A stretch of 64,000 nucleotides of DNA from an uncultured Candidatus Woesearchaeota archaeon (GTDB lineage: Archaea > Nanobdellota > Nanobdellia > UBA10117). The translations under genes and the position numbers were made by a program. Below the pieces are notes generated by a model. The model searched no databases. It saw nothing but the letters and a program-made list of their open reading frames with translations, and had not been told where the DNA came from. The DNA is taken from assembly GCA_903864915.1 (NCBI GenBank), contig CAIPHS010000007.1:15146-79145 (forward strand), given 5' to 3'. This document shows positions 11,768 through 60,225 of the stretch, one piece after another (the stretch's first letter is position 1; each line of letters starts with the position of its first letter).

Positions 11768-11856
11768 CCCTCCATTACTAGCATGTACGGCGATTTAAGC
11801 CTTTAGTTTAGTCTTGCAAATAAATTCTTATATATGTGTTCTAGGAGAGTAGCAGC

Positions 11857-12312: not shown

Positions 12313-12433
12313 GGATAGAAAAATACGAATTATCGGCTTATAATTTTTCCATAATCAGATTTTACATCCGTAATTTCAAGACGTAAAAGTTTATATACTT
12401 CTATTTGTAGAAACACTTATGGAGGTCTTGTAA

Positions 12434-12583: not shown

Positions 12584-12683
12584 GCAGACAGAATTTTTAC
12601 TTTTCTTTTTATTTTAATTTTCAACTCTTAGAATAAGAAACTTTAAATACAACTTGTCATAGATGTAAATGGAGGTCTTAATA

Positions 12684-12842: not shown

Positions 12843-12902
12843 ATTAGTTTTTTAGTTTATTCTTCTTTTTATTATATTTTTAAAATCAATATAAAAAAGA
12901 AA

Positions 12903-34153: not shown

Positions 34154-34567
34154 TTAGCGCCATGAATCAACAAGCGACTTATTTTGCTGTATTGCATATT
34201 TGATTTCTTTTACAAAATACACTTTGCCTGTCTCTAAACCTAATGATTTTGCAACGTAGGTATCTGTTCTGCGCTTATCAATGCTTGTATCATCAAAGCA
34301 TGCCGTTTTTCTAAACTCTTCTGTAAAACTAGTACAATTATCACAAATCTGGTCTGGAATATTCTTAACTAACATGATTTTCTGCTCCTCGTTTTTCAAA
34401 ATGCTTTCTAAGAATTTTATGTGCTGGCTTTCTATCGTTAAAGCCAACCTTTCCTGCGTCACTTGAACGCCATCTGAACGTGTGTGGATATAATACTGTG
34501 GGAATACGAGATAACTTAGTAATTTGAGGTGGTGTCCTCTTAGTTTGATTGTTTTTGGTGTTTCCAT
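34154..34567 (-). CDS. hypothetical protein
   Basis: Intact ORF, 2-nt gap to the upstream gene. Confidence 0.4.
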   Translation of the reverse strand: METPKTIKLRGHHLKLLSYLVFPQYYIHTRSDGVQVTQERLALTIESQHIKFLESILKNEEQKIMLVKNIPDQICDNCTSFTEEFRKTACFDDTSIDKRRTDTYVAKSLGLETGKVYFVKEIKYAIQQNKSLVDSWR

Positions 34568-34568
34568 A

Positions 34569-35564
34569 TTACACCGGCTGAGCTGCTTCTTTAGTTCTGT
34601 ACTCTTTCAGTTCTCCAAGTTTCTTGTGCATTTGGTACACGAGACTGATTGTTGCATGCACGCGATCTTTGCCCCATTTTTGCTCACTTCGAAGAAACTC
34701 ATTTGTTGTCTCTATGAGCGCAGTAGTATAATGAATACAAACGTCTTCGAGCGCTTTTCCGTAATCCCAATTTATACATTGTGGATTGAATGATATAGTG
34801 TGCTCTTCTCCTTTAGCATACTTTTCCACATCATCTTTGAAAATTTTCCAGGCACCATCATTCGGGTCAAATAGATTGAATGACACATACTTGTTTCCCT
34901 CGTAGCAATTCCATCTGTTCATTTTCGATATGACTTTATCTGCAAACCATAAATACGGCTCAACAGTGGACAGAAACTGCGCTTCAAATTTCTCGTTGAG
35001 CAATTTTCCACTGATTCTTTCTTTCGTAGCGGAAAGCAACGCTGTCCTAGCTGCTTCCCCATATACCATCTGTGCGCTTGATAGCCAAGAGTCGTAGAGA
35101 CTTTTAATCTCTGCTTGGAAATCAGTTCTATGCTCTCTTATATTGTTCTCAAGTTTTGTAAGCAATTCCCTCGGCTTACCGTTGTATGTTGCATCAAACA
35201 AAGACGTGATATTGGAAAGTAAATTTATTGTGCCAGTATCTTTCAGAAGTTTTGCTTTATCATTAGCCTCATTGAGTCTTTTCCTTTCCGCTTCAAATCC
35301 GTCTAAGCGCGTTATCGCAGTTTCCTGCGATAGTGCAAGCAATATTTCTTCAAGCAACCCAGAGACTTCAAGCTGAACTTTAGGTTTAGGCATGTATTCT
35401 AAATCTCCACCCGCAAGCCAAACGCCCAATTTATCGCAAGCTTTTGGGCTAAGTTTTTCTCCGGTCAGCTCTTCATAAACATCAATTATTTTTTTCTCTA
35501 CCATTTTAGGCAGCCATTGGCACATAATAGGACTTGTTCTGTTCGTCAAAAGAGTACACGCCAA
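34569..35564 (-). CDS. hypothetical protein (331 aa)
   Basis: Intact ORF. Overlaps the upstream HTH gene. Confidence 0.45.
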   Translation of the reverse strand: MACTLLTNRTSPIMCQWLPKMVEKKIIDVYEELTGEKLSPKACDKLGVWLAGGDLEYMPKPKVQLEVSGLLEEILLALSQETAITRLDGFEAERKRLNEANDKAKLLKDTGTINLLSNITSLFDATYNGKPRELLTKLENNIREHRTDFQAEIKSLYDSWLSSAQMVYGEAARTALLSATKERISGKLLNEKFEAQFLSTVEPYLWFADKVISKMNRWNCYEGNKYVSFNLFDPNDGAWKIFKDDVEKYAKGEEHTISFNPQCINWDYGKALEDVCIHYTTALIETTNEFLRSEQKWGKDRVHATISLVYQMHKKLGELKEYRTKEAAQPV

Positions 35565-35874
35565 GTTGAATTAGCAAATCAAGCTTGCCTTGCAAGTCCT
35601 TTGCATCAACGCCATTCAAATCCTGCTCTTCTCTTATTCTCGTGATTAGATTTTCAATAGTAAGCTGCTCGCCAGGCTTGATTACGCCTTTCATGAGGTA
35701 TGGAAGTTTGACTTTGGTCTGGTGACCTTTTGATTTCAAGCCATATTCCATGAAATAATGCATAATTGTTCTCTGGTCTACCCCTGCATACCTGGCAGCT
35801 TCCCTTACTGTCATGTTCTGCAGGCCAGCATCCTTGATTAGGCACTTCTTGGCTTCTGAAAGTTGTCGTGACAT
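35506..35874 (-). CDS. HTH DNA-binding protein (MerR/excisionase-like HTH)
   Basis: MTVREAARYAGVDQRTIMHYF HTH. Confidence 0.45.
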   Translation of the reverse strand: MSRQLSEAKKCLIKDAGLQNMTVREAARYAGVDQRTIMHYFMEYGLKSKGHQTKVKLPYLMKGVIKPGEQLTIENLITRIREEQDLNGVDAKDLQGKLDLLIQLGVYSFDEQNKSYYVPMAA

Positions 35875-45269: not shown

Positions 45270-45467
45270 CTAGTCCTTCTTGTATCGAGCCACGATGTCT
45301 ATTAAGTCTATGTGACCCAAAAACAGTGCTCGGCAGCAGTATCTCTTAATACCTAATTTGTCAAGCACTTCTTTTGCAGGCTCTCCTTTAGCAACTCTTT
45401 CCTTAAATTGCTCCCACAAATGCGCTACTGGTTTTCCGCAACTAAAACAACGAATCGGAATTATCAT
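45270..45467 (-). CDS. rpoN: DNA-directed RNA polymerase subunit N (Rpo10)
   Basis: MIIPIRCFSCGKPV...YCCRALFLGH zinc motif. 65 aa. Confidence 0.85.
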   Translation of the reverse strand: MIIPIRCFSCGKPVAHLWEQFKERVAKGEPAKEVLDKLGIKRYCCRALFLGHIDLIDIVARYKKD

Positions 45468-45509
45468 AATATTGTTGGTAAATTGCTGGCTTTTAAAAGC
45501 TTTGGTTTT

Positions 45510-45526
45510 AGGGGCTTTATAAAGCC
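45510..45526. promoter_or_regulatory. fully palindromic TATA element GGGGCTTTATAAAGCCC between divergent rpoN and cassette gene 1
   Basis: 16-nt perfect palindrome containing TTTATAAA. About 45 nt upstream of rpoN and about 105 nt upstream of the 45629 start. Confidence 0.4.
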
Positions 45527-45628
45527 CTTTTTAAGAGCCAAACCACCGAAACCCTTTTAAACACAATATAGCAATTAATGTATAACTAATACATACAATA
45601 TAGACAACACATCCATATTGAAACTAAA

Positions 45629-45934
45629 ATGGCAAACCCAAAAGACGCTGTAAAAGAAACGCTAAGTGCATTCTTAGCTGGTGCTATGCCTGCCCCACAG
45701 GCTGTTGCAACCATAGACAAAATGATTGGCGGGATTACAGGATTTATCTACAAAGATGGTCTTAAGTTCACTATTCAGAACCTAATGCAGCGTTTTTCTT
45801 GCCCACTCCCTCAAAGCAAATACGAACAGAAACTCTTTGTCGAAGAGCTAGTCCCTGAACTGCAAAGCTACTGCAACGGCATGGGACAGGCCCACATCTC
45901 AAAGTACCAATCAACAAAGCATCATTGCGCTTAG
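45629..45934 (+). CDS. cassette gene 1, hypothetical protein
   Basis: CTAAAATG start context. 101 aa. Confidence 0.45.
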   Translation: MANPKDAVKETLSAFLAGAMPAPQAVATIDKMIGGITGFIYKDGLKFTIQNLMQRFSCPLPQSKYEQKLFVEELVPELQSYCNGMGQAHISKYQSTKHHCA

Positions 45935-45942
45935 GAGAAAAA

Positions 45943-46350
45943 ATGGCAACCTCACAACTTCGAACACTGGAAAATTTGAAAACGCAGGTAGAACGTCCTA
46001 TAAACAGCCCGACTACGGAAGAGACAAAGTATTCTAGCAAGCAGCCTTTTGATCCTGTAAGCGCTGCTGCTTCATTCCACCGCGCTTTGCCTGAAGGTAA
46101 ATATAAAGATGCTACTTACTGCATACTAAAGACCCTTGCCAAAGGCGAGTATGATCTAGAATCTGTCGCAGGTAACTTAATGACGGATTTAGATTCAGCA
46201 GATCCTGGCAAATCTAGACCTGCACTCAACACCTTGCAGCACATTCTATCTTTGTACGATGTGAGCATACCCCCAACCGACCCGGATGGTCCGGTCATTG
46301 AGAAAATGCGTGAGGCTGTAGACATATACCAAATGATAAACGGAGACTAA
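45943..46350 (+). CDS. cassette gene 2, hypothetical protein
   Basis: AGGAG SD then ATG 45943. The ORF-track start 45925 is the alternative. Confidence 0.45.
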   Translation: MATSQLRTLENLKTQVERPINSPTTEETKYSSKQPFDPVSAAASFHRALPEGKYKDATYCILKTLAKGEYDLESVAGNLMTDLDSADPGKSRPALNTLQHILSLYDVSIPPTDPDGPVIEKMREAVDIYQMINGD

Positions 46351-46351
46351 A

Positions 46352-46891
46352 ATGTTAACTATCAAAAAAATCCAGCCAAGGAAAGCAAATAAAGGTGTTT
46401 TGCTAGATGCAAATGTCTTCATCGATGCTGAGCAAGATAAACCTTTAGCCATACAAATATTAAAAGCTGCAGAAGACAATTACTTTTCAGAAAATCCAAA
46501 ATTCGCATTTTACACAACAAATCAAGCCATACAAGAGCTTTATAGGCTAGAACCAAAAATCGAAAGCTTTGGAATTTTTATAACTCCAATAAATATTACT
46601 AATACCGATGCTGTTATTGATAGTATACGTAATGGCGCCAGCTCTACAGATAAGGGCTTGCTTCAAGCCTTAGCAACAAACAAAGACGTTGATACTTTAG
46701 TAACTGAGGATAGACATCTATGGAATCCAGATATTCTAAATTTTGTTAGAACTCATTATCAAAAACCAGTCCAAATTTTTAATCAAAACCGTTTTGTAGA
46801 AAAGTTTCTGCAACCCCAAGAAGTGAATCATCAGGGTTTTGAAAAGATTGAGGCCTATTTGCAGGCCAAAGGCAAATTTGTAGGAGGTTAA
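46352..46891 (+). CDS. cassette gene 3, PIN-domain-like protein
   Basis: VLLDANVFIDAE N-terminal acidic motif. LVTEDRHL. Junction CGGAGACTAAAATG. Confidence 0.45.
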   Translation: MLTIKKIQPRKANKGVLLDANVFIDAEQDKPLAIQILKAAEDNYFSENPKFAFYTTNQAIQELYRLEPKIESFGIFITPINITNTDAVIDSIRNGASSTDKGLLQALATNKDVDTLVTEDRHLWNPDILNFVRTHYQKPVQIFNQNRFVEKFLQPQEVNHQGFEKIEAYLQAKGKFVGG

Positions 46892-46892
46892 A

Positions 46893-47219
46893 ATGACAAC
46901 TGAAATGAAAACTGAAAATAAACAATGGGATGAAACGAGGGACCTTGTCGACAAGGTAACTCGAAATATAAAAGACGGCAAGAAAGACGAAGCCAAAACT
47001 TTGATTGGCGATTTTGCGAAATCTGGCAGTCTTGGCTATTTTACGGCGCACTTATTGAAGCGCGTTGGGGAACATAGATCTGCTGCTGTAAAAGGATTCG
47101 AAGCTGGCACGCCGCGCGACATAGCAAGAGAGATGTACGAAATGCTAGCACAAGAATTAGAACAGGCTGGCAGAACAGAAGACGCCCAGATTTATCGCAA
47201 CGGTTCAACTTACTTGTGA
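46893..47219 (+). CDS. cassette gene 4, hypothetical protein
   Basis: Junction AGGAGGTTAAAATG. Confidence 0.45.
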   Translation: MTTEMKTENKQWDETRDLVDKVTRNIKDGKKDEAKTLIGDFAKSGSLGYFTAHLLKRVGEHRSAAVKGFEAGTPRDIAREMYEMLAQELEQAGRTEDAQIYRNGSTYL

Positions 47220-47226
47220 GTTTGCA

Positions 47227-47568
47227 ATGACTGATTGGAGAGATATCGGGCACGAGTGCATGAAGCACAACGACTACCAGCACGCCATCATAGCCTATGC
47301 GAAAGCTGGTGAAACTAAACTACTCTACAATCTTGGAGATTATCTCATAAAAGAGAGTAATATTGATTTAGCTAAGGTTGCTTATCACTCTGCTCTAAAG
47401 TCAGAACCAGACGAAGTTCTTGAAAAAAAGTTAGAGTTGCTGTTGGATGAGGATGACAAGGTCAAAAACAACGGCCGCGACCCAATAACTCTCACACGCC
47501 TTGACACTTCGATAAATGTTATTCTCAAAATTCTTGACGAGCGCGATGGAATAAAGGAGGCCAGCTAA
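47227..47568 (+). CDS. cassette gene 5, TPR-like helical repeat protein
   Basis: HAIIAYAKAGETKLLYNLGDYLIKESNIDLAKVAYHSAL is TPR-like. Confidence 0.4.
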   Translation: MTDWRDIGHECMKHNDYQHAIIAYAKAGETKLLYNLGDYLIKESNIDLAKVAYHSALKSEPDEVLEKKLELLLDEDDKVKNNGRDPITLTRLDTSINVILKILDERDGIKEAS

Positions 47569-47569
47569 A

Positions 47570-48145
47570 ATGGTACTCGAAGATTTAATGCCTGTCTCTC
47601 GTGATGCTGAAAAATTAGCTCTGGCCAAGCAAGTGCAATCTCAAATAGATAGTATGTCTTATATCCCACATATTCTTAACCCAAAAGCAAAAGATACGAT
47701 GTATCGGTATCTAAGAAACGCTTTAGAAATTAAAAATGACCTGAGAGATGGAAAAAAGTACTCTAACTGTCTTGAAGGTGCTATTTATGCGGCATACCGC
47801 ATGTGGACTGAAGAGGGCATACAGCCAAGACTGTTAGTAATATACAACGATTTGGACCTTAAAGAATCTGCACATGCAGTTTGCATTTTTGAATGCGGTG
47901 GAAAATTTTACAGCGTTGGCCAGTCAAGACATCCAGAATTAAAGGGTAAATTAAAACCGTATGATTCTGTTGAAGAACTAGCTGATGTTTACAAGCAAGA
48001 ATTAACACTAAAAGGTTATCACCCTGTTGGGCACACCATCCGCAATCTCGATGTTAGCAAAAAAGAGATTGGACAGAAAGATACTGAATGCTGGCTAACC
48101 GGCAATGCAGAGAACCTGGTAACTGAAATATTGGAGGCCAGCTAA
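47570..48145 (+). CDS. cassette gene 6, putative papain/transglutaminase-like cysteine peptidase
   Basis: SNCLEGAIYAAYRMW (Cys) ... SAHAVCIFECGGKFY (His). Junction GGAGGCCAGCTAAAATG on both sides. Confidence 0.35.
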   Translation: MVLEDLMPVSRDAEKLALAKQVQSQIDSMSYIPHILNPKAKDTMYRYLRNALEIKNDLRDGKKYSNCLEGAIYAAYRMWTEEGIQPRLLVIYNDLDLKESAHAVCIFECGGKFYSVGQSRHPELKGKLKPYDSVEELADVYKQELTLKGYHPVGHTIRNLDVSKKEIGQKDTECWLTGNAENLVTEILEAS

Positions 48146-48146
48146 A

Positions 48147-48875
48147 ATGACAGTCAGCGGCCTTGAAGACAAGATAAATACTGCTAAGGATTTCCTTGTC
48201 AAGCTCGGCAAAGTCAGGAACCGTAAGTCTCTGACAGACCTAATTAATGATTATTTCAGCAACAGCACTTCGCAAAAAGCCATGCAGTCTGACATCCCTT
48301 ATGCAATTGCAAGGGTGATTGAAGCTTATGCAGATCTTAAGCCCGAAGAAAGAACAGTAAAACTAATAGTCATAGATGACCTAAACAAGCTTTACCTTGA
48401 TGTTATAAAGACAAAAAAATTCCTAGGAGTCAGCGCAGAAGATGTTGCCACGCAGGCAAGTGACGCCTACATTGTTTCGCGCAAGGAAGCCTTAACAGCC
48501 CTTGCAACTGAGGACTTGATGAGAGGCAATGCCCTTTCTGCAATAGAAAAATTCTGTGATGCTTACAAATCATCTAACCCTAAGCGCGAACAGTCAGCAA
48601 ATGACCTGAAAGCCGCTGTAATAGACTTCGAGAAAGACGGAGAAATAGGGATATTTATAAAAAAATACTGCCTTGCGGGCGGTAATGTTATCGATTATTT
48701 CAGCCAGGAGAAAAACAAGGAAATTCTCCAAAAGCTGCGCAAAGAAAGCGGCGATAATGTTGTTGAGGCTTGCCTGCACGACAATCAATTGGTGAATGGC
48801 AAAGCAACGCAATACTGGACAATCCAGCATGGGCTGGCCGACCAGCTTTACGAGCATCTGGAGGCTGCAAAATGA
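48147..48875 (+). CDS. cassette gene 7, hypothetical protein
   Basis: 242 aa. Junction CTGGAGGCTGCAAAATGA. Confidence 0.45.
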   Translation: MTVSGLEDKINTAKDFLVKLGKVRNRKSLTDLINDYFSNSTSQKAMQSDIPYAIARVIEAYADLKPEERTVKLIVIDDLNKLYLDVIKTKKFLGVSAEDVATQASDAYIVSRKEALTALATEDLMRGNALSAIEKFCDAYKSSNPKREQSANDLKAAVIDFEKDGEIGIFIKKYCLAGGNVIDYFSQEKNKEILQKLRKESGDNVVEACLHDNQLVNGKATQYWTIQHGLADQLYEHLEAAK

Positions 48876-49105
48876 TGTCTTCCGAAGATGATTGCAAGGA
48901 AAGTTTTGTAATGCCTTCAAAGAAAGAAGGCATCAGCGTATGTGCCAACAGAGCGATGTGCATATACCAAAGCAAGGACTATGCCGATGCTGAAAAGCCG
49001 CTGGAAGTCAAATACTGGAATGGCCCGATATCATACTCTTCATTGCCAATCTGCAAGATCTACAGCCCAGCCATCCAAAATAGCAACGGGAACGGTGCAA
49101 AATGA
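48872..49105 (+). CDS. cassette gene 8, small Cys-containing protein (77 aa)
   Basis: ATG 48872 overlaps the upstream stop. 4 Cys. The ORF track shows an N-terminally extended version (48770). Confidence 0.4.
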   Translation: MMSSEDDCKESFVMPSKKEGISVCANRAMCIYQSKDYADAEKPLEVKYWNGPISYSSLPICKIYSPAIQNSNGNGAK

Positions 49106-50184
49106 AACATACAAATGGCTTAGAGAACATAGCATCCTGCGCCATAATTGTGCCTGCTTACAACAAAGCACCATACATAGACAGGACATTTGAAAATTTA
49201 TCTGCTCTTGCTAAGCAAGGCTACAAGACAATCATAGTTGATGATGCTTCTACTGATGGTACAAGATCAAAGATACAGCAATATGCTGCAGCTCATCCAG
49301 AAATTCAGGCACTATACATGCAATCCAACGGCAAGAAAGTTGGAGCGCAGAAATATGCCCTTGAAAACTTGCCTGAAGGAATAGACACTGTAATAATGCT
49401 TGACTCAGATTCTTTTATCAAAAACCCAGAAGCCATACCAAGAGTCATCAATGGACTAAATGCAGACAGGAAACTAGCTGGCGGCGTTTTCAAGCTTGAA
49501 CCTGAGGGAAAGGGCTTTTGGAAACAGTTCCAGGACGTAGAATACGCTATGGCTTCCGGCTTCAAGCGCTGGACTTCGCAAATTGGCAAGTTGAGATGCG
49601 CTGCTGGAGCTGGTGCAATTTACAAGAGAAAACCACTGGAAGCTGCCCTGAGAAGCCACACTGGCGAATTCATAGGTGATGATTTCGAATTAACAACTAT
49701 CGTGCAAGACAAAGGTCACAGCATGAGGTATATCCCAAAAGTGAAAGTTGGAACATATGTTCCTGAAACTTACAAGGAAAAAGTCCTGCAACTTGAAAAA
49801 TGGCTCCGTGGCGGTTGGCGCGTATGGGCTGACAAGACCAACGAGCTAACAAAGCAGCTTGCGAGCACAGACAGGCTTTCGCTTACACTGGGCCTGGAAC
49901 TTTTGGCTCCGGCTACATTAAGCTCAACAATATACGGAATTGCTAATGCTGCCCATAACCTGGGCTTCAGCAAGACATACTTAGCATCAATGGCTGGATG
50001 GTCAGCACTTAACGCAGGCATAGCAAAATACGGCGGAGCAGACAACAAGACAATCGCAAAAACTGTTGCATTCACGCCAGTCTGGCCAGTATATGCAATA
50101 ACCACATACCTGCCAGCGGCAATAATGGCTGCAGGCAAGCTGGCAAAAGACAGGCTGTTCAAGCGCAAGAAGGTGGCAACATGA
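49102..50184 (+). CDS. cassette gene 9, membrane-anchored family-2 glycosyltransferase (synthase-like)
   Basis: IIVPAYNKAPYIDRTFENLSALAKQGYKTIIVDDASTDGT. LDSDS (DxD). GFKRW (QxxRW-like). C-terminal TM helices. Confidence 0.75.
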   Translation: MKHTNGLENIASCAIIVPAYNKAPYIDRTFENLSALAKQGYKTIIVDDASTDGTRSKIQQYAAAHPEIQALYMQSNGKKVGAQKYALENLPEGIDTVIMLDSDSFIKNPEAIPRVINGLNADRKLAGGVFKLEPEGKGFWKQFQDVEYAMASGFKRWTSQIGKLRCAAGAGAIYKRKPLEAALRSHTGEFIGDDFELTTIVQDKGHSMRYIPKVKVGTYVPETYKEKVLQLEKWLRGGWRVWADKTNELTKQLASTDRLSLTLGLELLAPATLSSTIYGIANAAHNLGFSKTYLASMAGWSALNAGIAKYGGADNKTIAKTVAFTPVWPVYAITTYLPAAIMAAGKLAKDRLFKRKKVAT

Positions 50185-50567
50185 AACCTACTTACTTCTG
50201 CGGCGTTATTGAAGATGAAAATGGCTGGAAATACATCTGCCCCATGTACAGAAAACTTGGCCCTGTTGCGATATGGATTGGGGAAGAAAAATCCCGCGAA
50301 GTAATCGATGACTTCGAAGACAATTTTACTAATTACAACGTAGAAACACTTCATGTTGACAAATCAAGGGTAAACAAATTCGGAATCATAGGATTTTCCA
50401 GAAACCCTAAAGCAAAACTTGAATTGCCAAAGAGAAATCTGGAAGAACTGATTAGCATGTTCGATGAAAGTGTTGCCCAGCAGGCAACAGGCCCAGACAT
50501 GCCGAGAAAATGGAAGATGCATTTCGAGGGCAGCGCAATAATCCAGGAGCCGAGGTACAAGACATGA
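50181..50567 (+). CDS. cassette gene 10, hypothetical protein
   Basis: ATGA overlaps on both ends. Confidence 0.45.
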   Translation: MKPTYFCGVIEDENGWKYICPMYRKLGPVAIWIGEEKSREVIDDFEDNFTNYNVETLHVDKSRVNKFGIIGFSRNPKAKLELPKRNLEELISMFDESVAQQATGPDMPRKWKMHFEGSAIIQEPRYKT

Positions 50568-50848
50568 TACTTTTTGCAGAACAAAAGCCAACTGTGCGGA
50601 AGCAAAAGAAGCTTGCTAAGTCTGAACTAGAAAAAATCTGCGCGGAAGGCTATGCCGTTCCAAGCTTTAACACCTGGACTAACAAGCCAGGAACATTTTG
50701 CAGAAAAGAAATAGGAACATGCATGGGCCAGTCAACGGAAAATGACAAAATAGTATCCTATGGCGTTGTCATAGACGGCGAACACTACTGCCTACCTCTT
50801 TGCATGTTTGCACCAGATTATCACCAAAGCAAGGGAGCCAAAAAATGA
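50564..50848 (+). CDS. cassette gene 11, small Cys-rich protein (94 aa, 6 Cys)
   Basis: Start at MILFAEQ by GAGGT SD and ATGA overlap. The ORF-track start 50510 is the alternative. Confidence 0.4.
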   Translation: MILFAEQKPTVRKQKKLAKSELEKICAEGYAVPSFNTWTNKPGTFCRKEIGTCMGQSTENDKIVSYGVVIDGEHYCLPLCMFAPDYHQSKGAKK

Positions 50849-51486
50849 CACCTTCTGAAGTAACAAGGCAGGATTTGGAAGCTCTAGTTAGCAAGGCTAA
50901 TGAGCTTGCCAAAGAAATGGGCTTGACTTTACACTTAGACCCATCAAAGATAAATCTTCAACCCGGCGATAATGTACATGGCAATTATAACGAAGATGAC
51001 AATAATATCACTCTAAATTACGACCAAAAAGGCATTTTTGACCAGGACTTAATCAAGATATTAGTACATGAAGGTACTCATGAAAAGTTCGATAAAGAAA
51101 TTGTCCCAAATTGTAAAAATTACATTACTAAATGCTATATTAGCGCGCTTTTTGATGAAAATCTGGCTTACGCAGTACAATTCTTTTTTGATGCTGAAAT
51201 CTATACTCAGGGATTAGGCTCAAAAAATCCCGAAGTATTCAGACAAACTAACTGCCATTACCCACAATTAGGATATGCAATAGCAAAAGCCTGCAAAAAT
51301 GGCATGAAGATGGATGAAATTTTTGACAAAGTAAAGACCATACAGCTTTCTGATGATCCAAAATATCCATCAGCTATTGTAGCCAAATTTATCAGAGATG
51401 ATTTAGGCATAAAGCTGACTGATGTTTTTGAAAAAGAAAATGCAAACAAATATGAGCGCTGTATTGCGGCGGAGGCTGCACAATGA
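50845..51486 (+). CDS. cassette gene 12, putative HExxH metallopeptidase-like protein
   Basis: LVHEGTHEKFD (HExxH). Start at MTPSEV by GGGAG SD. Confidence 0.4.
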   Translation: MTPSEVTRQDLEALVSKANELAKEMGLTLHLDPSKINLQPGDNVHGNYNEDDNNITLNYDQKGIFDQDLIKILVHEGTHEKFDKEIVPNCKNYITKCYISALFDENLAYAVQFFFDAEIYTQGLGSKNPEVFRQTNCHYPQLGYAIAKACKNGMKMDEIFDKVKTIQLSDDPKYPSAIVAKFIRDDLGIKLTDVFEKENANKYERCIAAEAAQ

Positions 51487-51620
51487 CAACCTTCAGGATT
51501 ACCAAGAGGATAGCCAAGCATGGCAAGCAGGCCATCATAGTTATTCCAAAGGTCCTGCAGCAGATGCTCAAGCCAAATACAATTGTCGAGCTGCAGATAA
51601 AGGTCCTGGAGGCCTGCTGA
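51483..51620 (+). CDS. cassette gene 13, AbrB/MazE-type swapped-hairpin DNA-binding protein (45 aa)
   Basis: MTTFRITKRIAKHGKQAIIVIPKVLQQMLKPNTIVELQIKV. Absent from the ORF track (the track lists a different frame, 51422..51625). Confidence 0.5.
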   Translation: MTTFRITKRIAKHGKQAIIVIPKVLQQMLKPNTIVELQIKVLEAC

Positions 51621-51621
51621 A

Positions 51622-52521
51622 ATGACAAAGAAAAAACAAAATAAGGATTTGGAAGAAATGATTGCTGAGCAAAGACCTTTAGATAAATTAGACCTGACAA
51701 TCAAATTACCCAATGATGTTTACCTAAATGTAAAAGACATATTAGAAAATAAAGCTGGATTTTTGTTATCAACAAGGTTGGGACAGCTTGAATATCGTCA
51801 ATTTAGATATGGATTAGGTAATGATGAGATAACATTCCCAGGTCAAACTTACTTAATGATGCCTCACCTGTTTAAAAACCCAAATAATCTGGAAGGCCAT
51901 AACTATAAAAAAATTCCGCCCTTTGACAACGGCGATTTAGCAAAAAAGATTGCACATAGTGATATTGTATTACTTATGAAATTGCCAGAAACAAAAGGCA
52001 ACAAACCATTCGTAGCTGCGTATTATTATCTAGGTCACGATTACAAATCAAGGCAGGCAATGGCAGCAAACATAATGTTTTTGAATGAGAAAGAATTTGG
52101 AGTTATTAGCAAGATTCTGAAAGACAATCCGGAATACGCACATGATATTTTCTATAAGATGCCAATACTGGCTGCCAAAAAATCTTTAGCAACTATGGAT
52201 GAGCAAACATTAAACCAAGTCTATAATGGTTATGGACATAGTGGAGCTAGCTTAGATGACAGAGCTGCACAGCTAGCCGCAATTTATTACGCAGATTACA
52301 AGGAATATGTATCCAAACTAAATCATGACTCAACTGCCGTAAATAAAATTCTTGACGACCCTAAGACGCCTGAATGGATGAAAGAAAGTTTAATGAAAAG
52401 TTATGGCGGCGTCAGGCCATCTATAGACAAAGGTTCACCAAGCCATAATAGAAAAATTACAGTAGTTGAATGGAAAGACGGCAAGCTGAATGTTTATGAG
52501 CAGAAGAAAGAGGGCAGCTGA
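51622..52521 (+). CDS. cassette gene 14, hypothetical protein
   Basis: 299 aa. Junction GGAGGCCTGCTGAAATG upstream. Confidence 0.45.
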   Translation: MTKKKQNKDLEEMIAEQRPLDKLDLTIKLPNDVYLNVKDILENKAGFLLSTRLGQLEYRQFRYGLGNDEITFPGQTYLMMPHLFKNPNNLEGHNYKKIPPFDNGDLAKKIAHSDIVLLMKLPETKGNKPFVAAYYYLGHDYKSRQAMAANIMFLNEKEFGVISKILKDNPEYAHDIFYKMPILAAKKSLATMDEQTLNQVYNGYGHSGASLDDRAAQLAAIYYADYKEYVSKLNHDSTAVNKILDDPKTPEWMKESLMKSYGGVRPSIDKGSPSHNRKITVVEWKDGKLNVYEQKKEGS

Positions 52522-52522
52522 A

Positions 52523-53236
52523 ATGGCACTTGAAGATCATATTCAAAAGGTGGGTACTAACCGAATAGAAATTACCAATATGACTGCTTTTGGTGCAGAG
52601 CTTACAAAAGCTCTATCTGAGTTATTTAACATAAAAGGGAATTACAAAATACCAATTTTAACAGAAGAGGAATATGCCGAACTTGAACCAGATCGTTGTA
52701 TGTACTGTTTAATTCGTTTCACCAGCTGTTTTGATGAGGATTTAAAATCCGTAATGCTTGTAAACACAGACAAACATAATCCGTGCGTATATGGTGAAGA
52801 ATTAACACACGGACTGGTATGTAATGCTAGACCAGGTACAGATTTGAGCGTAGATGAATTTTTTGGTTTTCTTGGACAGAAAGCAACATATAAAATACTA
52901 AGAAATTACCAGCCACAGTTGCACCTGCCATCATTAAACGATATCATAGACTGGTTCAATCGCAGCAAATGCAAATATGAACGTGATGAAATATATAAAA
53001 TTGATTTAGACCGCACAACAGGTGGTTTAGTGGCAGGCATAGCAGCCCCTGTTGCACTAGAAGATAAAAAACTGTTTAGCAGGTCTGACGAGGAAATAAA
53101 GCATATCTACTTTGAGCCGGTACTTAATTGTGATTGGCCAAAATATTGGGAAGGCAAGCCTGACTGGTGGCGTCTCGGAGAAAAGTGCGCAGAAATTAAC
53201 AGAGAGATAAAGAAGAGAATGCAAGAGGCCAGCTGA
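52523..53236 (+). CDS. cassette gene 15, hypothetical Cys/His-containing protein
   Basis: Start MALEDH by GAGGGCAGCTGAAATG junction. The ORF-track start 52490 is the alternative. Confidence 0.45.
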   Translation: MALEDHIQKVGTNRIEITNMTAFGAELTKALSELFNIKGNYKIPILTEEEYAELEPDRCMYCLIRFTSCFDEDLKSVMLVNTDKHNPCVYGEELTHGLVCNARPGTDLSVDEFFGFLGQKATYKILRNYQPQLHLPSLNDIIDWFNRSKCKYERDEIYKIDLDRTTGGLVAGIAAPVALEDKKLFSRSDEEIKHIYFEPVLNCDWPKYWEGKPDWWRLGEKCAEINREIKKRMQEAS

Positions 53237-53237
53237 A

Positions 53238-53711
53238 ATGGCACGAAGGATGACGCCTGTTGAAGAGAAAGAAATCAAGGACTTGAGGCGGCAAAATCTG
53301 TCATACGCTGAAATAGCAAAGCTGACTGGATTTGGCAAAGAAGTAATCCGCTATCATACTGACGAGAAAACGCAATCAAATGCAAAGCATTACGCAAGCA
53401 AATATTTTAGCCAAGAAAAAATCAGATCCAAGGAAAACGCCAGGCAAAAAGCAATTCGTCATCTCGATTCCCACGTAGTAAATCTGCTTGCTTCATGCAG
53501 AAGCGACATGAATATCCCTGAAATGAGGAAAAGCCTCGAGGAAAGGCTGGGCATAAAATTCTCTGAATATTTTGAGAACAAGATTGACGTCATAGTCAAA
53601 GATTTCATCAAATTGGGCAAAAACTCCCCAGTAGTCTGCACTGAAAATTACCGTTATAGGATAAACAGGAATTCCCCATACTACAAGGCATATTTGGAAG
53701 GGAAAAACTAA
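53238..53711 (+). CDS. cassette gene 16, HTH (sigma-70 region-4/LuxR-like) protein, paralog of gene 17
   Basis: RRQNLSYAEIAKLTGFGKEVIRYH. C-terminal YRYRIN block shared with gene 17. Confidence 0.45.
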   Translation: MARRMTPVEEKEIKDLRRQNLSYAEIAKLTGFGKEVIRYHTDEKTQSNAKHYASKYFSQEKIRSKENARQKAIRHLDSHVVNLLASCRSDMNIPEMRKSLEERLGIKFSEYFENKIDVIVKDFIKLGKNSPVVCTENYRYRINRNSPYYKAYLEGKN

Positions 53712-53712
53712 T

Positions 53713-54174
53713 ATGGCAAAGCTAATTGATGATACTTTGATGGAAAGGATACTAGAACTAAGGAAAGAAGGACTATCTGGCATAAAAATAGGTCGCACAT
53801 TGAACGTCAATGAAAAGAGAGTATACTATTACATGAATGCTGGAATGAGGCAGCACATAAGAGAAAGGATGGGCAATTACAATCACAAGTCAGAAGTCGA
53901 AAGGAAAAGAAAAGTCATAAACGATCTTCAGAACAGAATTATCGAAGCATTTGACGACGATTACATGTCAGCGTATCAGATTAGAACAAACATAGAAAAC
54001 AAATATAACCTAAGTCTTTCTGCTGACTTCGAAGATAAAATTGAAGAAGCGATAGTGGATTTCGCGAATGAACTTGGCAGAAACACACCAATAAAAATGT
54101 TAAGACCTTTTGGATATCGCATTAATACGAAATCAACTCATGCGCTCCTTTGTGGTGAGCCTGTTGAGGGCTAA
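53713..54174 (+). CDS. cassette gene 17, HTH protein, paralog of gene 16
   Basis: RKEGLSGIKIGRTLNVNEKRVYYYM. C-terminal FGYRINTKS. Confidence 0.45.
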   Translation: MAKLIDDTLMERILELRKEGLSGIKIGRTLNVNEKRVYYYMNAGMRQHIRERMGNYNHKSEVERKRKVINDLQNRIIEAFDDDYMSAYQIRTNIENKYNLSLSADFEDKIEEAIVDFANELGRNTPIKMLRPFGYRINTKSTHALLCGEPVEG

Positions 54175-54516
54175 ATGGTGATTGAAAACTTCCTTGGTAA
54201 TGCAAAAGTCATTGACGTACGTGATTTTCCGGGTTGGCTAGATGAATTCAGAGCATATGTTGCGAACTTGCCTGATGAAATCAGCAAGCTGAGACAAAGG
54301 GAAAGGGATGCCAGATACGCCCTTGAAATGAACGGCCTTTATGATGCTGTCGAGAACGTAACAGACCGTCAAAAGCGAGAAAGGCTTCAGGGCCTAGCCT
54401 TAATTCTTGGAGATTTGCACTTCAAGAGATGTGATGATAATAAAGCCTGGCAAAAATACGAAACATTCTTGGCAAAATACAAAGAACAGGTAGAAAAAGC
54501 AAAAGTTTATCTGTAA
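54175..54516 (+). CDS. cassette gene 18, hypothetical protein
   Basis: TAAATG junction. 3' end overlaps the convergent rpsI by 10 nt. Confidence 0.45.
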   Translation: MVIENFLGNAKVIDVRDFPGWLDEFRAYVANLPDEISKLRQRERDARYALEMNGLYDAVENVTDRQKRERLQGLALILGDLHFKRCDDNKAWQKYETFLAKYKEQVEKAKVYL

Positions 54517-54917
54517 GACTTCTGCCTCTTGGCCCTTGCTCTTGAGTGTGTGCCTGCCTTCTTTGGTTCTTTCCTTCTTGTGTCTGCAACCATCAAGAAC
54601 CTGTCATAATCAATGAATGTCTTCTTCAGCTGGTCAGAGCCTGTGTAAACAACAAGTGCCTTTGCTATTGCAAGCCGGGCAGCTTCTGCCTGTGAGCTCC
54701 AGCCGCCGCCAACAACATTGATGTCTATGTTAACATCTGCAGCCATCGGGCCTGCTATCAGCAATGGTTCCCTTAATCGCAAGCGCGCAAACTCAGGCTC
54801 GTACAAATCAAGAGGTATTGAATTTATCTTAATTATACCGTTTCCAGGCCTTGCGGTAGCCCTTGCTACTGCTTCCTTCCTCTTGCCTGAAACGTGTACT
54901 ATTTTAGTAGCTGCCAT
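54507..54917 (-). CDS. rps9: 30S ribosomal protein S9
   Basis: C-terminal ...KKAGTHSRARAKRQKSYR. Confidence 0.9.
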   Translation of the reverse strand: MAATKIVHVSGKRKEAVARATARPGNGIIKINSIPLDLYEPEFARLRLREPLLIAGPMAADVNIDINVVGGGWSSQAEAARLAIAKALVVYTGSDQLKKTFIDYDRFLMVADTRRKEPKKAGTHSRARAKRQKSYR

Positions 54918-55694: not shown

Positions 55695-55772
55695 CTTCGA
55701 CTTTCACCTTTGAAACCAGCGAAATCCGCGAGGATTTCAGCGCGTTTCATCTTCGATTCCTATGAGCTTGAG

Positions 55773-55856
55773 TGCGGGAGACAGGGTTCGAACCTGTGTA
55801 CCCACTAAGGGACACGACCCTCGATCGTGCGAGTTTGACCGCTCCTCCACTCCCGC
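55773..55856 (-). tRNA. tRNA-Leu (anticodon GAG), class II with long variable arm
   Basis: Acceptor GCGGGAG/CTCCCGC. Anticodon arm CACGA-TCGAGGG-TCGTG. Variable arm. T-arm ACAGG-TTCGAAC-CCTGT. Discriminator A. Confidence 0.75.
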
Positions 55857-55911: not shown

Positions 55912-56673
55912 TTACTTGAGTTTCACTTCTTTGAGCTTCTGCTGTAAGATGCTTACAGCTTCATTCAGTATCTTCTCTGGAGCTACCTGGCCCCAGCTCT
56001 CTATCGTGAGTATGAAATTCTCTTCGCTGTTTGTAATTTTGACTCCGTTCTTCTCGAGGGTTTCCTCGTAAGCAGGCAGCCATTTCGGGTAATCAGTAAT
56101 TTCTATTGTCTTGCCAGTCTTCTTTGCAACATTTGCAGGTATTTTCTCGAAAGCCTTGTCCAAATCTGCATTCTTCGTGTCGAATCCAGGTATTCCTCTG
56201 TAATACACATGACAGCCAGACCATTTCGTGTGCTCCATGCCTTTGCCCAAAACTGCAACGAAATCCAGTTCGATTTCCTGGCCTTCCAGAAGCTTCGTAA
56301 TCATCATCTTAGGGTAAATTGCCTTTACAGTTGGGTCCTTGAACTTCATGTCTTCAGCGTAAACTGTTGCAGGCCCTTTTGCCTTCAATGAGCCTTTGAC
56401 AGAACACTTTGCGCAAAGCTTGCCTTTGCAGCTGCACTCGGAAGGCAAGTTGTAAGATTTCAAGTCAGTCTTCAATGGTATCAAACCAAGCCTGTGTGCA
56501 ATAATTTCATCATAAAGTACTGAGGAGTTTTTCGTGTAGTAAACATCTTCGATTGCAAGTGCAGGCACTTCGTACATGGCTGTTCGTCTCAATGCGTTCA
56601 GGAAACCTGGGTGTGCACCCTCTATCTCGAATGTAACTTCATTATCTTCCTGTTTCAGTACGGATATTTTCAT
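55912..56673 (-). CDS. rpoD: DNA-directed RNA polymerase subunit D (Rpo3)
   Basis: Cys cluster CSCKGKLCAKCSVKG. Start at MKISVLK; the ORF-track start 56718 would overlap S11. Confidence 0.85.
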   Translation of the reverse strand: MKISVLKQEDNEVTFEIEGAHPGFLNALRRTAMYEVPALAIEDVYYTKNSSVLYDEIIAHRLGLIPLKTDLKSYNLPSECSCKGKLCAKCSVKGSLKAKGPATVYAEDMKFKDPTVKAIYPKMMITKLLEGQEIELDFVAVLGKGMEHTKWSGCHVYYRGIPGFDTKNADLDKAFEKIPANVAKKTGKTIEITDYPKWLPAYEETLEKNGVKITNSEENFILTIESWGQVAPEKILNEAVSILQQKLKEVKLK

Positions 56674-56674
56674 T

Positions 56675-57064
56675 TTAAACTCGCCTACCTCGCTTGCCGC
56701 CCTTCTTTCGGCAACCACCGTGAGGAATAGGAGTTACATCTTCTATGCCTATTACCTGCAGGCCAGACCTTGTCAAGGCTCTGATTGCTGGCTGTGCGCC
56801 TGGGCCTGGGAATCTCATTCCATTCTGTCCGCCCTTCGCCCTGACTTTAACATAAATCTTCCTTACGCCCTGTTCCAGGGCGGTTGCTGCAGCTTTTTTT
56901 GCAGCAAGCATCGCGGCAGTCGGGCTTCCTTCCAGCCTGTCAGCCTTGACTACTTGGCCACCTGATGCCAGAGCAATTGTCTCTGTGCCTGTCAGGTCAG
57001 TGATGTGTATGATTGTGTTGTTGTAAGTTGCCTGTATGTGTGCTATTCCTATTCGGTCAGCCAT
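56675..57064 (-). CDS. rps11: 30S ribosomal protein S11
   Basis: [18 protein letters not shown]...[11 protein letters not shown]. Confidence 0.9.
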
Positions 57065-57613: not shown

Positions 57614-58189
57614 TTACTTCTTACCCTCTTTCTTCCCTTCAGTCTTTGGAGCTGCTTTTGGCATCTCCTTCTGTCGGGTTACACCAACAGTAGTACCCTT
57701 TCTACCAGTTGTCCTTGACCTCTGGCCTCGGACTCTCTTACCCTTAATGTGTCTGATGCCTCTGAAACTTCGGATTTTCTTCAGGAACTTTATATCCAGA
57801 CTTTGCTGGAAGGTGAGATTAGAACCAACCAAATGCTTGTCAACGCCCGTTTCCAGGTCCTTTCTCCTGTTCAGCATCCAAATAGGAATGCCATATTTTT
57901 CAGGGTGCTGCATGCAATCTTCAATCTTGGCTATTTCAGGTTCTGACAAATTTCCAACCTTCTCATTCCTAACAAGGCCAAGAACATGGCAGATTGCATT
58001 AGAAAGCATGAAATCGATGCCTTTGACTTTAGTCAAGGCAAGATAAATAGACTCTTCACCATCTACGTCCTTGTCCACGATTCTTAACAGTGACCTGAAT
58101 TCCTTTCCCGGAACCGAAGCTTTGCTTTGGTGAGGCGCAGCTGAACTCTGTTCAGGTTGTGCTTCTTTTGGTTTGACTTCTTCAGCCAT
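57614..58189 (-). CDS. rps13: 30S ribosomal protein S13 (with N-terminal extension)
   Basis: EFRSLLRIVDKDVDG...RGIRHIKGKRVRGQRSRTTGRKG. Confidence 0.85.
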   Translation of the reverse strand: MAEEVKPKEAQPEQSSAAPHQSKASVPGKEFRSLLRIVDKDVDGEESIYLALTKVKGIDFMLSNAICHVLGLVRNEKVGNLSEPEIAKIEDCMQHPEKYGIPIWMLNRRKDLETGVDKHLVGSNLTFQQSLDIKFLKKIRSFRGIRHIKGKRVRGQRSRTTGRKGTTVGVTRQKEMPKAAPKTEGKKEGKK

Positions 58190-58299: not shown

Positions 58300-59316
58300 T
58301 TACTGCAATCCCACCATACTCAAAATTTTGTGGTTGATGTGTGGTATTCGTATTAATGCTGGCATAAGAAGATAACAGAGTTTTGTAAGATACGGTCGTG
58401 TCGCAATTATTTTGCGGGTTTTTTCCTGCGCGGCTTTAATTTTTAATAGCTCTTCGATTTGGGTGAAATCGTATTTAGAACTTAGAATTCCTCGTGCAAC
58501 TTCTTCCCCGCTGATGATTGCAGGGCCTATGCCTTTGCCCGTAAGGTCCATTATAAAACCTGCTGCATCTCCAACCAAAAACACGTTCTTGAACTTAAAA
58601 CCCTCATATGACATATTTAATGGTGCTGCAATCAGTTTCTTTCCTTTGATTTTATATCCTTTTTCAGCGCACCACTCATCTAAATTCGTTCTAATTTCTG
58701 CTGCCGAAATCTCATTTGAATAGCAACCAGCTCCTATCATTGCTGAATTTTTGTAAGGAAAAATCCATGCGAAAAGAGAACCGAAAAGCTTTCTGTTGAA
58801 TATAAATTCCAAGTCTTTAAAGCGACCTTTGACTTCGTACTCCATGCAGATAGCCCATTTATTGGATTTTAGGCCAAGGTATTCGCGAACAATTGACGCA
58901 CTTCCATCTGCGCCTATCAAGAATTTGAAAGGGATTTTTTCTTTTCCAACTTTCACAAAATTTTTGCTAATTTCTGTGACTTTTGCGTTGTATCTGATTT
59001 CAGCGCCTGCTTTTTGTGCTTGTTTCGCTTGAAATTTTCCCAAGTTTGTTCTGCGAACCGTGCACATTATTTTTCCAGAATCTTTTAGCGAGACTTCTGT
59101 GCCCTCAAGATTTAGTAATACTCGATTGAATTGCCGCTCTAGAATGGATTTGGGAATTCCGTAGCTGAGTTCCAAATTAGTTAGACCACCAGCACAAACT
59201 TTCAAGCCTGGAATCTCGTTTTTCTCTAGAACCAAAACGTCTTTTCCTGCTTCTGCCAGCATTTTTGCTGCAGCCAGCCCTCCAGGGCCTGCTCCCACTA
59301 TAACAATTTCTGGCAT
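58300..59316 (-). CDS. geranylgeranyl reductase family flavoprotein
   Basis: IVIVGAGPGGLAAAKMLAEAGKDVLVLEK FAD fold. GGR-like C-terminus. Confidence 0.8.
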   Translation of the reverse strand: MPEIVIVGAGPGGLAAAKMLAEAGKDVLVLEKNEIPGLKVCAGGLTNLELSYGIPKSILERQFNRVLLNLEGTEVSLKDSGKIMCTVRRTNLGKFQAKQAQKAGAEIRYNAKVTEISKNFVKVGKEKIPFKFLIGADGSASIVREYLGLKSNKWAICMEYEVKGRFKDLEFIFNRKLFGSLFAWIFPYKNSAMIGAGCYSNEISAAEIRTNLDEWCAEKGYKIKGKKLIAAPLNMSYEGFKFKNVFLVGDAAGFIMDLTGKGIGPAIISGEEVARGILSSKYDFTQIEELLKIKAAQEKTRKIIATRPYLTKLCYLLMPALIRIPHINHKILSMVGLQ

Positions 59317-59354
59317 ACAACCACAAATTGCAGGACTTTAATAAAAGTTGTGAA

Positions 59355-59480
59355 CGCCGAGGCTGGGATTTGAACCCAGACACCCTTGCGGGAACAAGCT
59401 CTCGAGACCTTATTCCAGGCGTACGCTCGTTTTAATTTCTTAAAAACGATTTGCGCGCTACCAGGTTACGCGACCTCGGC
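59355..59480 (-). tRNA. atypical tRNA-like gene (126 nt; intron-containing or degenerate; anticodon not assignable)
   Basis: Perfect 7-bp acceptor GCCGAGG/CCTCGGC. D-arm GCGT-AACCTGGTA-GCGC. T-arm CTGGG-TTCAAAT-CCCAG. Discriminator G. About 52 extra nt including a CGTTTT-TAAGAAATT-AAAACG hairpin. No contiguous 5-7-5 anticodon arm. Confidence 0.5.
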
Positions 59481-59496
59481 ATGCCTAACGGGTATT

Positions 59497-60225
59497 TTAG
59501 CCAGTTAAAAGACTTTCTTTCAGTCTTAAATATTTAACTTTGTGATTCAAACCTATTTCATTCAGAAATTTCTGTCTGCTCTTTTTCATAGATATTATCA
59601 AGATATGATTAACCGACCATTTTGGATTTTTGGGCGAATAACTATATATTTTAGATTCGATATGAAATAAAGACAAAAGTTTCTGTACATCTCGAATGCC
59701 TTTTTCATTTACGGTTTGCACCCTAATAACTTTACTAGTTATGTACCCTTCGGCATCAAAAAAAGCTCTTAGCCATTCCTTCAGCAATTGCTTACTATTC
59801 ATAATAAAACTCGGTATAGACCAGGTTTTAACACCAAAAGCAGCGTGTTTGAGTAAATCTTCGACCACTATTTTTGAATTAAAACGAACACTATAGAAAT
59901 TATTATGTTCTCTAATTGTTGGGGCTATATTATAAACTGTTTTAAGTGCGGCTATGAACGGCGATAACAATGATGAATGATCTGGATAAAACCCCACCTC
60001 ATTATGAAAACCGCGACCTTTCTCTTCGCGAATACCAACGTGACCATCACCTGCTAAATATCCAAATACTAGAGCTTTAAGACGTAATTTATTTTTAGAA
60101 TTATTATTTATCCGCGCTCGCTCTTTGGCTTGGCGTTTTTGCCAGTATGCAAGAACATTAGCTCTATTCCTCTCTCTAAATCGCATCTGATTATTAGGAA
60201 GGCGCAGTATTTTAATATAGCGCAT
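59497..60225 (-). CDS. double-motif LAGLIDADG homing endonuclease
   Basis: VFGYLAGDG (motif 1) and LRAFFDAEG (motif 2) about 95 aa apart. 242 aa. Confidence 0.65.
   Translation of the reverse strand: MRYIKILRLPNNQMRFRERNRANVLAYWQKRQAKERARINNNSKNKLRLKALVFGYLAGDGHVGIREEKGRGFHNEVGFYPDHSSLLSPFIAALKTVYNIAPTIREHNNFYSVRFNSKIVVEDLLKHAAFGVKTWSIPSFIMNSKQLLKEWLRAFFDAEGYITSKVIRVQTVNEKGIRDVQKLLSLFHIESKIYSYSPKNPKWSVNHILIISMKKSRQKFLNEIGLNHKVKYLRLKESLLTG

Follow-up and report, generated by a model that had tools for sequence, protein, structure and literature searches.

A probable lineage-restricted, hypervariable accessory operon of orphan genes between the S9 and RpoN genes of a Woesearchaeota species cluster

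Which genes separate ribosomal protein S9 from RNA polymerase subunit RpoN by 9 kb in an uncultured Candidatus Woesearchaeota archaeon, and how did they come to lie there? The locus is part of contig CAIPHS010000007.1 (assembly GCA_903864915.1), of which we analysed a window of 64,000 nt (positions 15,146 to 79,145); coordinates refer to this window unless a relative is named. Its host genes run S13-S4-S11-RpoD-tRNALeu-L18e-L13-S9 on the minus strand, as confirmed by the listing of open reading frames (ORFs), Pfam and ARAGORN, and RpoN-M50 protease-TFE-alpha resumes on the same strand 9 kb past S9 (Pfam); the order up to S9 and the distance to RpoN agree with the initial annotation of this DNA. 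The gap is filled, as also described there, by 18 tightly packed plus-strand ORFs (45629-54516), c01 to c18, which we refer to as the cassette, and the identical set of 18 genes has been called on this contig in the publicly available assembly. Consecutive cassette genes are spaced -32 to +8 nt, and the last one, c18, overlaps 10 nt of the S9 3' end. Since both cassette junctions were recovered in independently built ENA, NCBI, JGI and Logan assemblies, the locus is not a chimera. We consider it highly probable that the cassette is a lineage-restricted, chromosomally anchored and hypervariable accessory operon, in effect a flexible genomic island of the replacement type that forms a single transcription unit.

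A scan with S9 over one genome per GTDB species returned 17 further loci from Woesearchaeota/Nanoarchaeia, from which the host was assigned to the DPANN archaea. RpoN comes after S9 in 16 of these 17 loci, the closest ones being contiguous for S9-RpoN-M50-TFE, and the spacer from the S9 stop to the RpoN ATG measures 5-37 nt, with L006 (370 nt) as the exception. As RpoN directly adjoins S9 in nearly all relatives, the cassette is an insertion, and no homolog of any cassette protein was found in the 17 other loci; the earlier proposal of a self-contained module inserted into the S9-RpoN linkage is thereby borne out. The 9 kb sit in a tiny spacer with RpoN and S9 both undamaged. Other interruptions of this gene neighbourhood occur in cassette-free relatives, namely the 370-bp spacer of L006 (10409-10778), about 1.5 kb between RpoD and L18e in L014 (6292-7785) and a 4-kb gap between RpoN and M50 in L007. 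The latter was considered as a related cassette and rejected, as it holds a single PQQ-like repeat surface protein of 1270 aa (9456-13268).

Each of the nine contigs from the window's own species cluster (lineage A) carries a plus-strand cassette at the RpoN/S9 position, as determined by tblastn and family clustering, and the one-off island of this genome implied by the initial annotation is therefore not what was found. Within lineage A, core proteins are 92-100% identical (RpoN 100%) and flanks 90-94% identical at the nucleotide level, with cassette protein identities of 33-97%. Gene numbers vary from 18 in the window to 13 in L024/L025 and 12 in L026-L030, and L031 has a different 3' end. 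The initial annotation had named, as a finding that would speak against an insertion, close relatives with the same 18 genes at the same position and no S9-RpoN adjacency in the clade; the position is indeed shared, but the gene sets differ and the adjacency exists in the wider clade. L032, L033, L039 and L022, which make up a second host clade, have collinear relatives with 13-19 genes between the genes for elongation factor 2 (EF-2) and a class II aminoacyl-tRNA synthetase (aaRS), referred to as site B, with S9-RpoN as site A; EF-2 and the aaRS are not among the genes of the window. The shared backbone has the order x1, (c03), c05, x2, c07, x3, c12, c13, ... c18/x7, with at least 30 accessory families interspersed, and site-B variants additionally encode a Ham1-like ITPase and a CxxCxxCC protein. 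Family x5 (L022 1471-2169, L032 5450-6115), which stands in for c15-c17 at site B, contains about four internal repeats (...INDEAIKAIQQGY...). Three cassette variants are present in one metagenome, JGI 3300035701, so the opportunity for exchange exists.

The cassette is not a compositional island. Its tetranucleotide distance of 0.0120-0.0125 compares with a window mean of 0.0120 +/- 0.0017, and the composition check proposed in the initial annotation thus revealed no shift. Ratios of nonsynonymous to synonymous substitution rates (dN/dS) of 0.05-0.5, compared to 0-0.14 in the flanks, reflect purifying selection and indicate that the cassette genes are functional. The synonymous divergence (dS) of c04, c05 and c07 equals that of the flanks (0.2-0.3), as expected for genes that have co-diverged with the host, and that of c11, c12, c13 and c18 is 0.7-1.1, or 2-4 times the flanks. 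Identity is also patchy along the cassette: 48485-48863 is 98.7% identical to L026, with flanks of 90%, and L026 and L027, which generally differ by 2-4%, are 100% identical over 4.2 kb from the 3' half of the cassette through S9-L13-L18e and drop to 72% within c05 only, a single-gene allele swap. L031, with the most similar host flanks (94%), has the most divergent c18 (62%), and site-B copies of c18 reach 64-73%; similarity of c18 is decoupled from that of the host. From this heterogeneity of dS, the patchwork identity and the behaviour of c18 we conclude that vertical inheritance is combined with frequent homologous recombination swapping alleles and modules. The cassette diversifies by homologous recombination between co-occurring lineages, through the conserved flanks and through internal modules.

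An alignment of both sites revealed a conserved leader of approximately 120 bp in front of the cassette genes. It starts with the palindrome GGGCTTTATAAAGCCC, the core of which (CTTATAAAGCC) is invariant across site-A and site-B cassettes, and conservation at a different chromosomal site assigns this palindrome to the cassette. Closer to RpoN lies GCTTTTAAAAGC, which is conserved in lineage A only and resembles the TAAGCTTTAAAATGG spacer of the cassette-free L004. Due to this similarity to an uninterrupted spacer it is probably ancestral and not acquired, and probably represents the original RpoN promoter, yielding a near-leaderless mRNA. Thus, where RpoN had been thought to have gained its own palindromic TATA element, there are two palindromes, the larger one being that of the cassette. 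The motif CCGAAA-N3-TTTTAAAC presumably serves as cassette promoter, judged by the archaeal consensus of B recognition element (BRE) and TATA box. An inverted repeat further downstream has retained its stem in L032 and L033 with a variable loop and may be operator-like or form a hairpin in the 5' untranslated region. Rfam analysis of the leader and cassette region led to no non-coding RNA, with tRNA-Leu as the one match.

Nucleotide homology to the site-B cassettes begins at approximately 45507-45546 and ends at 54500, 6 nt short of the S9 stop codon; in L022 it ends exactly at the aaRS stop. The last codons of c18 run into the antisense of the adjoining host gene, which explains two classes of C-termini: KAK(T/V)YL where the cassette adjoins S9, and ASTS where it adjoins the aaRS. 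On the minus strand, a T-rich tract (TAAACTTTTGCTTTTTC, 54501-54520) follows right after the S9 stop as antisense of the conserved ...EKAK codons of c18, which may therefore supply an oligo-T terminator for the convergent ribosomal-protein operon. Most cassette genes have a GGAGG-type Shine-Dalgarno sequence inside the upstream gene, and gene boundaries recurrently consist of GGAGGCCAGCT(A/G)AAATG or of an ATGA overlap. The former, with a length of 17-22 nt, occurs in the window at 47555-47576, 48132-48153, 51607-51628, 52508-52529 and 53223-53244 and at many boundaries in all variants, including L024, L026, L032 and L033. Its recurrence explains why several unrelated cassette proteins end with -EAS or -EGS. 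As it is longer than a Shine-Dalgarno sequence needs to be, it could provide micro-homology for module exchange.

Only c09, a family-2 glycosyltransferase (GT2), and c05, a TPR protein found in every full cassette, exceeded the Pfam thresholds; the remaining 16 proteins have no family, in line with the initial annotation. Searches of the 18 proteins against PHROGs, PADLOC and NCBIfam added nothing significant, and c09 matched the NCBIfam model PgaC_IcaA with E 8e-19, under that model's cut-off. PDB profile searches with the families of c12, c07, c13, c16/17, c03 and c18 led to nothing significant. The cassette families have only 2-11 members among 5.8e9 proteins, c14 a single non-self homolog. 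Neither transmembrane segments nor a Walker A motif were detected in any cassette protein of any variant, and all products appear to be soluble cytoplasmic proteins. The PIN-like c03, with conserved D19, D100 and D120, occurs elsewhere only in site-B cassettes (53% identity), and c16 and c17 are paralogs (E 1e-7), a pair also present in L031 and L039.

Two unrelated proteases could be assigned. When c06 was aligned to CPR-C4 by phmmer (7ob6/7pjo, E 5e-5), its Cys, His and Leu(H+22) fell on C61/H93/L115, the published catalytic triad (PMC9108980), and a match to Pfam Vasohibin was obtained with E 0.015; homology and triad residues both identify the predicted protein as a CPR-C4/vasohibin-like cysteine protease. 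Structures were modelled for two of the 18 proteins, c07 and c12, from comparatively shallow alignments. The model of c12 has a thermolysin-like catalytic fold, which together with HExxH and a downstream Glu marks it as a predicted gluzincin metallopeptidase, with no match by sequence to the curated peptidase families. The model of c07 (pLDDT 91.7) gave only generic structural matches, and this protein has 6 cluster representatives among 1.84 billion. Weak Foldseek matches of c12 include MATCAP, and c06 significantly resembles vasohibin/CPR-C4. Vasohibin and MATCAP are the two unrelated human tubulin C-terminal carboxypeptidases; that both c06 and c12 resemble such enzymes is probably coincidence, though both hint at C-terminal trimming. 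The small c13 (pI 10.3) shows 90% mean column identity across both chromosomal sites. Its one library match was MazE at E 0.1, and c13 is a possible AbrB/MazE-fold DNA binder, sub-threshold and read mainly from a beta-beta-alpha-beta pattern.

How might these parts work together? The cassette is an ancient insertion into the 5-40-nt spacer of S9 and RpoN, dating back to the ancestor of a single Woesearchaeota species cluster and inherited vertically since, and a collinear relative occupies the EF-2/aaRS spacer of a second clade. Expression would start from the cassette's own leader of ~120 bp with TATA-like palindrome, BRE/TATA and operator-like inverted repeat, and junctions of the form GGAGG-N(5-8)-stop-A-ATG or ATGA would couple translation of neighbouring genes. 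The constant set comprises the gluzincin c12, the TPR protein c05, the helical-repeat scaffold c07, the probable DNA-binding regulator c13 and c18, with CPR-C4-like Cys protease, PIN-like protein, GT2, ITPase and helix-turn-helix (HTH) pairs as variable add-ons. Either c13 or the HTH proteins, or both, might autoregulate the operon at the leader repeat. As function we tentatively suggest an intracellular, proteolysis-centred conflict system of the defence or addiction type, a guess that we ourselves regard as doubtful. The explanation as a whole, i.e. a fixed hypervariable accessory operon with a function in conflict, seems to us reasonably but not strongly probable.

Several points weigh against it. 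A single operon of 12-19 genes is unlike typical defence systems, and PADLOC detected no known defence system among the cassette proteins, its matches being c03 to the N-terminus of PDC-M11A (E 1.2e-4) and noise. Both the PIN (c03) and the AbrB (c13) assignments are sub-threshold; compared with a type II toxin-antitoxin pair, these candidates (c03 to PIN_3 with E 0.099, c13 to MazE with E 0.1) are encoded 4.6 kb apart and differ in spread, c13 being universal and c03 accessory. Transcription as a single unit and the roles of promoter and operator are read from sequence alone. The occurrence at both sites A and B may go back either to horizontal transfer or to translocation, the compared loci having no host genes in common. 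Finally, a collinear mosaic backbone of small orphans at two sites also fits an element derived from a virus or plasmid.

Such an origin, which the initial annotation had also offered, would mean that an ancient element of 5-10 kb, unidirectional and rich in orphans like small archaeal viruses, integrated at both sites, lost its integrase and replication genes, was domesticated or is decaying, and exchanges modules with an unseen episomal pool. The collinear mosaic with its conserved regulatory region, large accessory pool and two integration contexts would suit it, as would the divergence of some alleles, which far exceeds that of the host. Almost every protein is an orphan, and archaeal viruses typically are collinear mosaics rich in orphans; small DNA-binding proteins, GT2, PIN-like protein and ITPase are content typical of archaeal mobile elements. 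However, no variant encodes an integrase, Rep, capsid, packaging ATPase or Walker-A protein, and transmembrane or hydrophobic structural proteins are likewise missing. Among the 18 cassette proteins, Pfam, PHROGs and NCBIfam revealed no integrase or recombinase, and PHROGs no structural or replication genes; the cassette genes of the relatives have no Pfam matches on record and likewise no integrase. No capsid-like fold was seen in the c07 and c12 models. A repeat search and inspection of the junctions at both sites led to no flanking att direct repeats or target-site duplication, so that in the lack of integrase and flanking repeats the initial annotation proved correct. The hexamer AAAAGC, common to both window junctions, was dropped as a candidate repeat because it is missing at the site-B left junction. 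Searches of viral and plasmid collections were negative throughout, for IMG/VR with c14 and c15 as well as the families of c12, c07 and c18, for a phage collection (tblastn) with c07, c12, c14 and c15, and for a plasmid collection with c12 and c07. An episomal form was found in none of the contigs, and no lineage-A genome is without the cassette, which has the composition of the host, evolves under purifying selection and in its 5' half matches the host in dS. Of the origins first proposed, the novel operon fits best; a virus remnant or integrated plasmid, the main rival reading, has no support from hallmarks, att sites, foreign composition or matches in the collections and is somewhat unlikely.

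Beyond the accessory operon favoured here, the data can also be read as an undescribed 'plug-and-play' type of archaeal operon, chromosomally anchored and integrase-less, in which DPANN lineages would exchange modules at standardised junctions of Shine-Dalgarno sequence, stop and start and at the leader, serving a diversifying intracellular immune or addiction system with two unrelated proteases and repeat scaffolds; this we regard as quite unlikely. Very improbable is an active non-autonomous element that depends on a recombinase supplied in trans, by the host or a helper, and targets spacers beside highly expressed translation operons. At each of the two sites one of the adjoining core translation genes is indeed divergent and the other convergent, and cassette homology ends 0-6 nt from the host stop codon at both, but c18 or x7 adjoin the host gene equally tightly, as genome compaction alone would give, only one site is used per host clade without presence/absence polymorphism within the clade, and terminal inverted or direct repeats and target-site duplications are missing. 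An array of promoterless gene cassettes as in integrons, suggested by same-orientation, strain-variable orphan genes behind a single promoter region, is refuted by gaps of -32 to +10 nt, too small for attC sites, and by the absence of an IntI-like tyrosine recombinase, and the conserved backbone order speaks against it as well. An ordinary conserved core operon, in spite of the same position in all close relatives, is hardly credible for families so rare and absent from the 17 other S9 loci, and neither is an assembly artefact with both junctions independently recovered.

Coordinates of the cassette genes, leader elements and adjoining host genes are collected in Table 1. Directly beyond S13 the window has a second variable spot (58300-60225), where an FAD-oxidoreductase gene and a free-standing LAGLIDADG ORF lie between S13 and the gene for a peptidyl-prolyl isomerase (PPIase). 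The lineage-A relatives L024 (14217-19011) and L026 (14260-15983) have a radical-SAM/SPASM gene in this place, after which L024 has several genes of unknown function and one for a CAP-domain protein. Elsewhere in the window, a minus-strand ORF (34569-35504) has its first ~40 residues (MVEKKIIDVYEELTGEKL...) in common with x15 of L032, a protein of the cassette pool, and then diverges (50% identity over 74 aa, E 1.5e-15). Its neighbours, 1-2 nt away, encode a DUF1284 protein (34154-34567) and a TetR/MerR-like HTH protein (35506-35874), and 34154-35874 may be a second small block using the same domain pool as the cassette.

Table 1. Features of the cassette locus and its surroundings (window coordinates)
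Feature	Position	Strand	Description	Evidence or distribution
rpoN	45270..45467	-	RNA polymerase subunit N/Rpb10, host gene at cassette 5' side	Pfam RNA_pol_N E 3e-28
GCTTTTAAAAGC	45489..45500	-	palindromic TATA-like element, centred ~27 nt upstream of RpoN ATG	read from sequence
GGGCTTTATAAAGCCC	45512..45527	+	16-nt perfect palindrome at leader start; upstream TATA-like element or hairpin
CCGAAA-N3-TTTTAAAC	45546..45562	+	BRE/TATA-like motif, putative cassette promoter	conserved at both sites
ATGTAT-N5-ATACAT	45578..45594	+	inverted repeat between putative TATA and c01
c01	45629..45934	+	101 aa, orphan	relatives have other genes in its place
c02	45943..46350	+	135 aa, orphan	window version only
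c03	46352..46891	+	179 aa, PIN-like candidate nuclease, weak assignment	Pfam PIN_3 E 0.099
c04	46893..47219	+	108 aa, lineage-A backbone gene	80% identity to L024/L026, dS near host
c05	47227..47568	+	113 aa, TPR protein, universal core gene	Pfam TPR_2 E 5e-7
c06	47570..48145	+	191 aa, predicted CPR-C4/vasohibin-like transglutaminase-fold cysteine protease, accessory	PDB 7ob6/7pjo E 5e-5
c07	48147..48875	+	242 aa, predicted all-alpha helical-repeat protein, backbone gene
c08	48872..49105	+	77 aa, orphan, 4 Cys
c09	49102..50184	+	360 aa, family-2 glycosyltransferase (PgaC/NodC-like), window version only	Pfam Glycos_transf_2 E 1e-20
c10	50181..50567	+	128 aa, orphan	also in L033 and L039
c11	50564..50848	+	94 aa, backbone gene, 5 Cys	48% identity to L024/L026, dS 0.85-0.97
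c12	50845..51486	+	213 aa, predicted HExxH...E gluzincin-fold metallopeptidase, universal core gene
c13	51483..51620	+	45 aa, basic, best-conserved cassette protein; candidate AbrB/MazE-like DNA-binding regulator
c14	51622..52521	+	299 aa, orphan accessory gene	also in L022 and L033
c15	52490..53236	+	248 aa, orphan accessory gene, 8 Cys
c16	53238..53711	+	157 aa, N-terminal HTH protein, c17 paralog	Pfam HTH_38 E 0.002
c17	53713..54174	+	153 aa, N-terminal HTH protein	NCBIfam HTH_Cbp1 E 1.8e-4
c18	54175..54516	+	113 aa, conserved terminal gene	ten relatives among 5.8e9 proteins
rpsI (S9)	54507..54917	-	host gene at cassette 3' side	Pfam Ribosomal_S9 E 1.6e-33
tRNA-Leu(gag)	55772-55856	-		ARAGORN
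RpoD	55912-56718	-		Pfam
S13	57614-58189	-		Pfam

DPANN archaea have minimal genomes, and since the cassette genes are in addition under purifying selection, a fast-shuffling block of 5-10 kb must pay its way, the more so in its position within the most conserved neighbourhood of transcription and translation genes. The cassette shows that flexible islands can occur in reduced genomes without recognisable mobility machinery, and that a single regulated operon can be their form of organisation. It and its relatives define about 40 new protein families, among them a gluzincin family not described before and a CPR-C4-like protease from archaea, and the set of comparable loci (two sites, at least seven variants) allows a search for the conflict partner, be it a virus, the host or a competitor. 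If a function in immunity or addiction were true, this would be a new type of system for archaea.

No description of such a locus type was found in the literature, and comparison with known systems shows partial likeness to several. Like integron arrays, the cassette has one promoter region followed by variable same-strand genes of mostly unknown function, but it has neither IntI nor attC, its genes overlap and their order is conserved. Cryptic integrated elements, a class of the integrated mobile genetic elements (iMGEs) of Thaumarchaeota (PMC6563490), and small archaeal proviruses are similar in size (5-10 kb), richness in orphans, mosaic modular evolution and the presence of small DNA-binding proteins and a glycosyltransferase; unlike these elements, the cassette lacks integrase, att, replication and structural hallmarks, has native composition, and is fixed in all clade members under purifying selection. 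At the level of single proteins, c12 shares HExxH, Glu and fold with gluzincins and by sequence matches no curated peptidase family. CPR-C4 is known from bacteria of the candidate phyla radiation (CPR), where it is a stand-alone gene with unrelated neighbours (PMC9108980), whereas c06 is one of the accessory genes within an operon of archaea. The closest correspondence is to replacement-type flexible genomic islands ('metagenomic islands'), which likewise occupy a fixed core-gene position with differing content in close relatives, without integrase or tRNA target, and are exchanged by homologous recombination through the flanks. Unlike them, the cassette forms one co-directional, translationally coupled operon with conserved leader and collinear backbone, encodes soluble cytoplasmic orphans instead of surface or glycosylation cargo (with one GT2, in the window version only), and has a homologous counterpart in a second clade, where it lies elsewhere in the chromosome. 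In kind, the cassette is best regarded as a flexible genomic island; new here are its previously undescribed protein families and its organisation as an operon.

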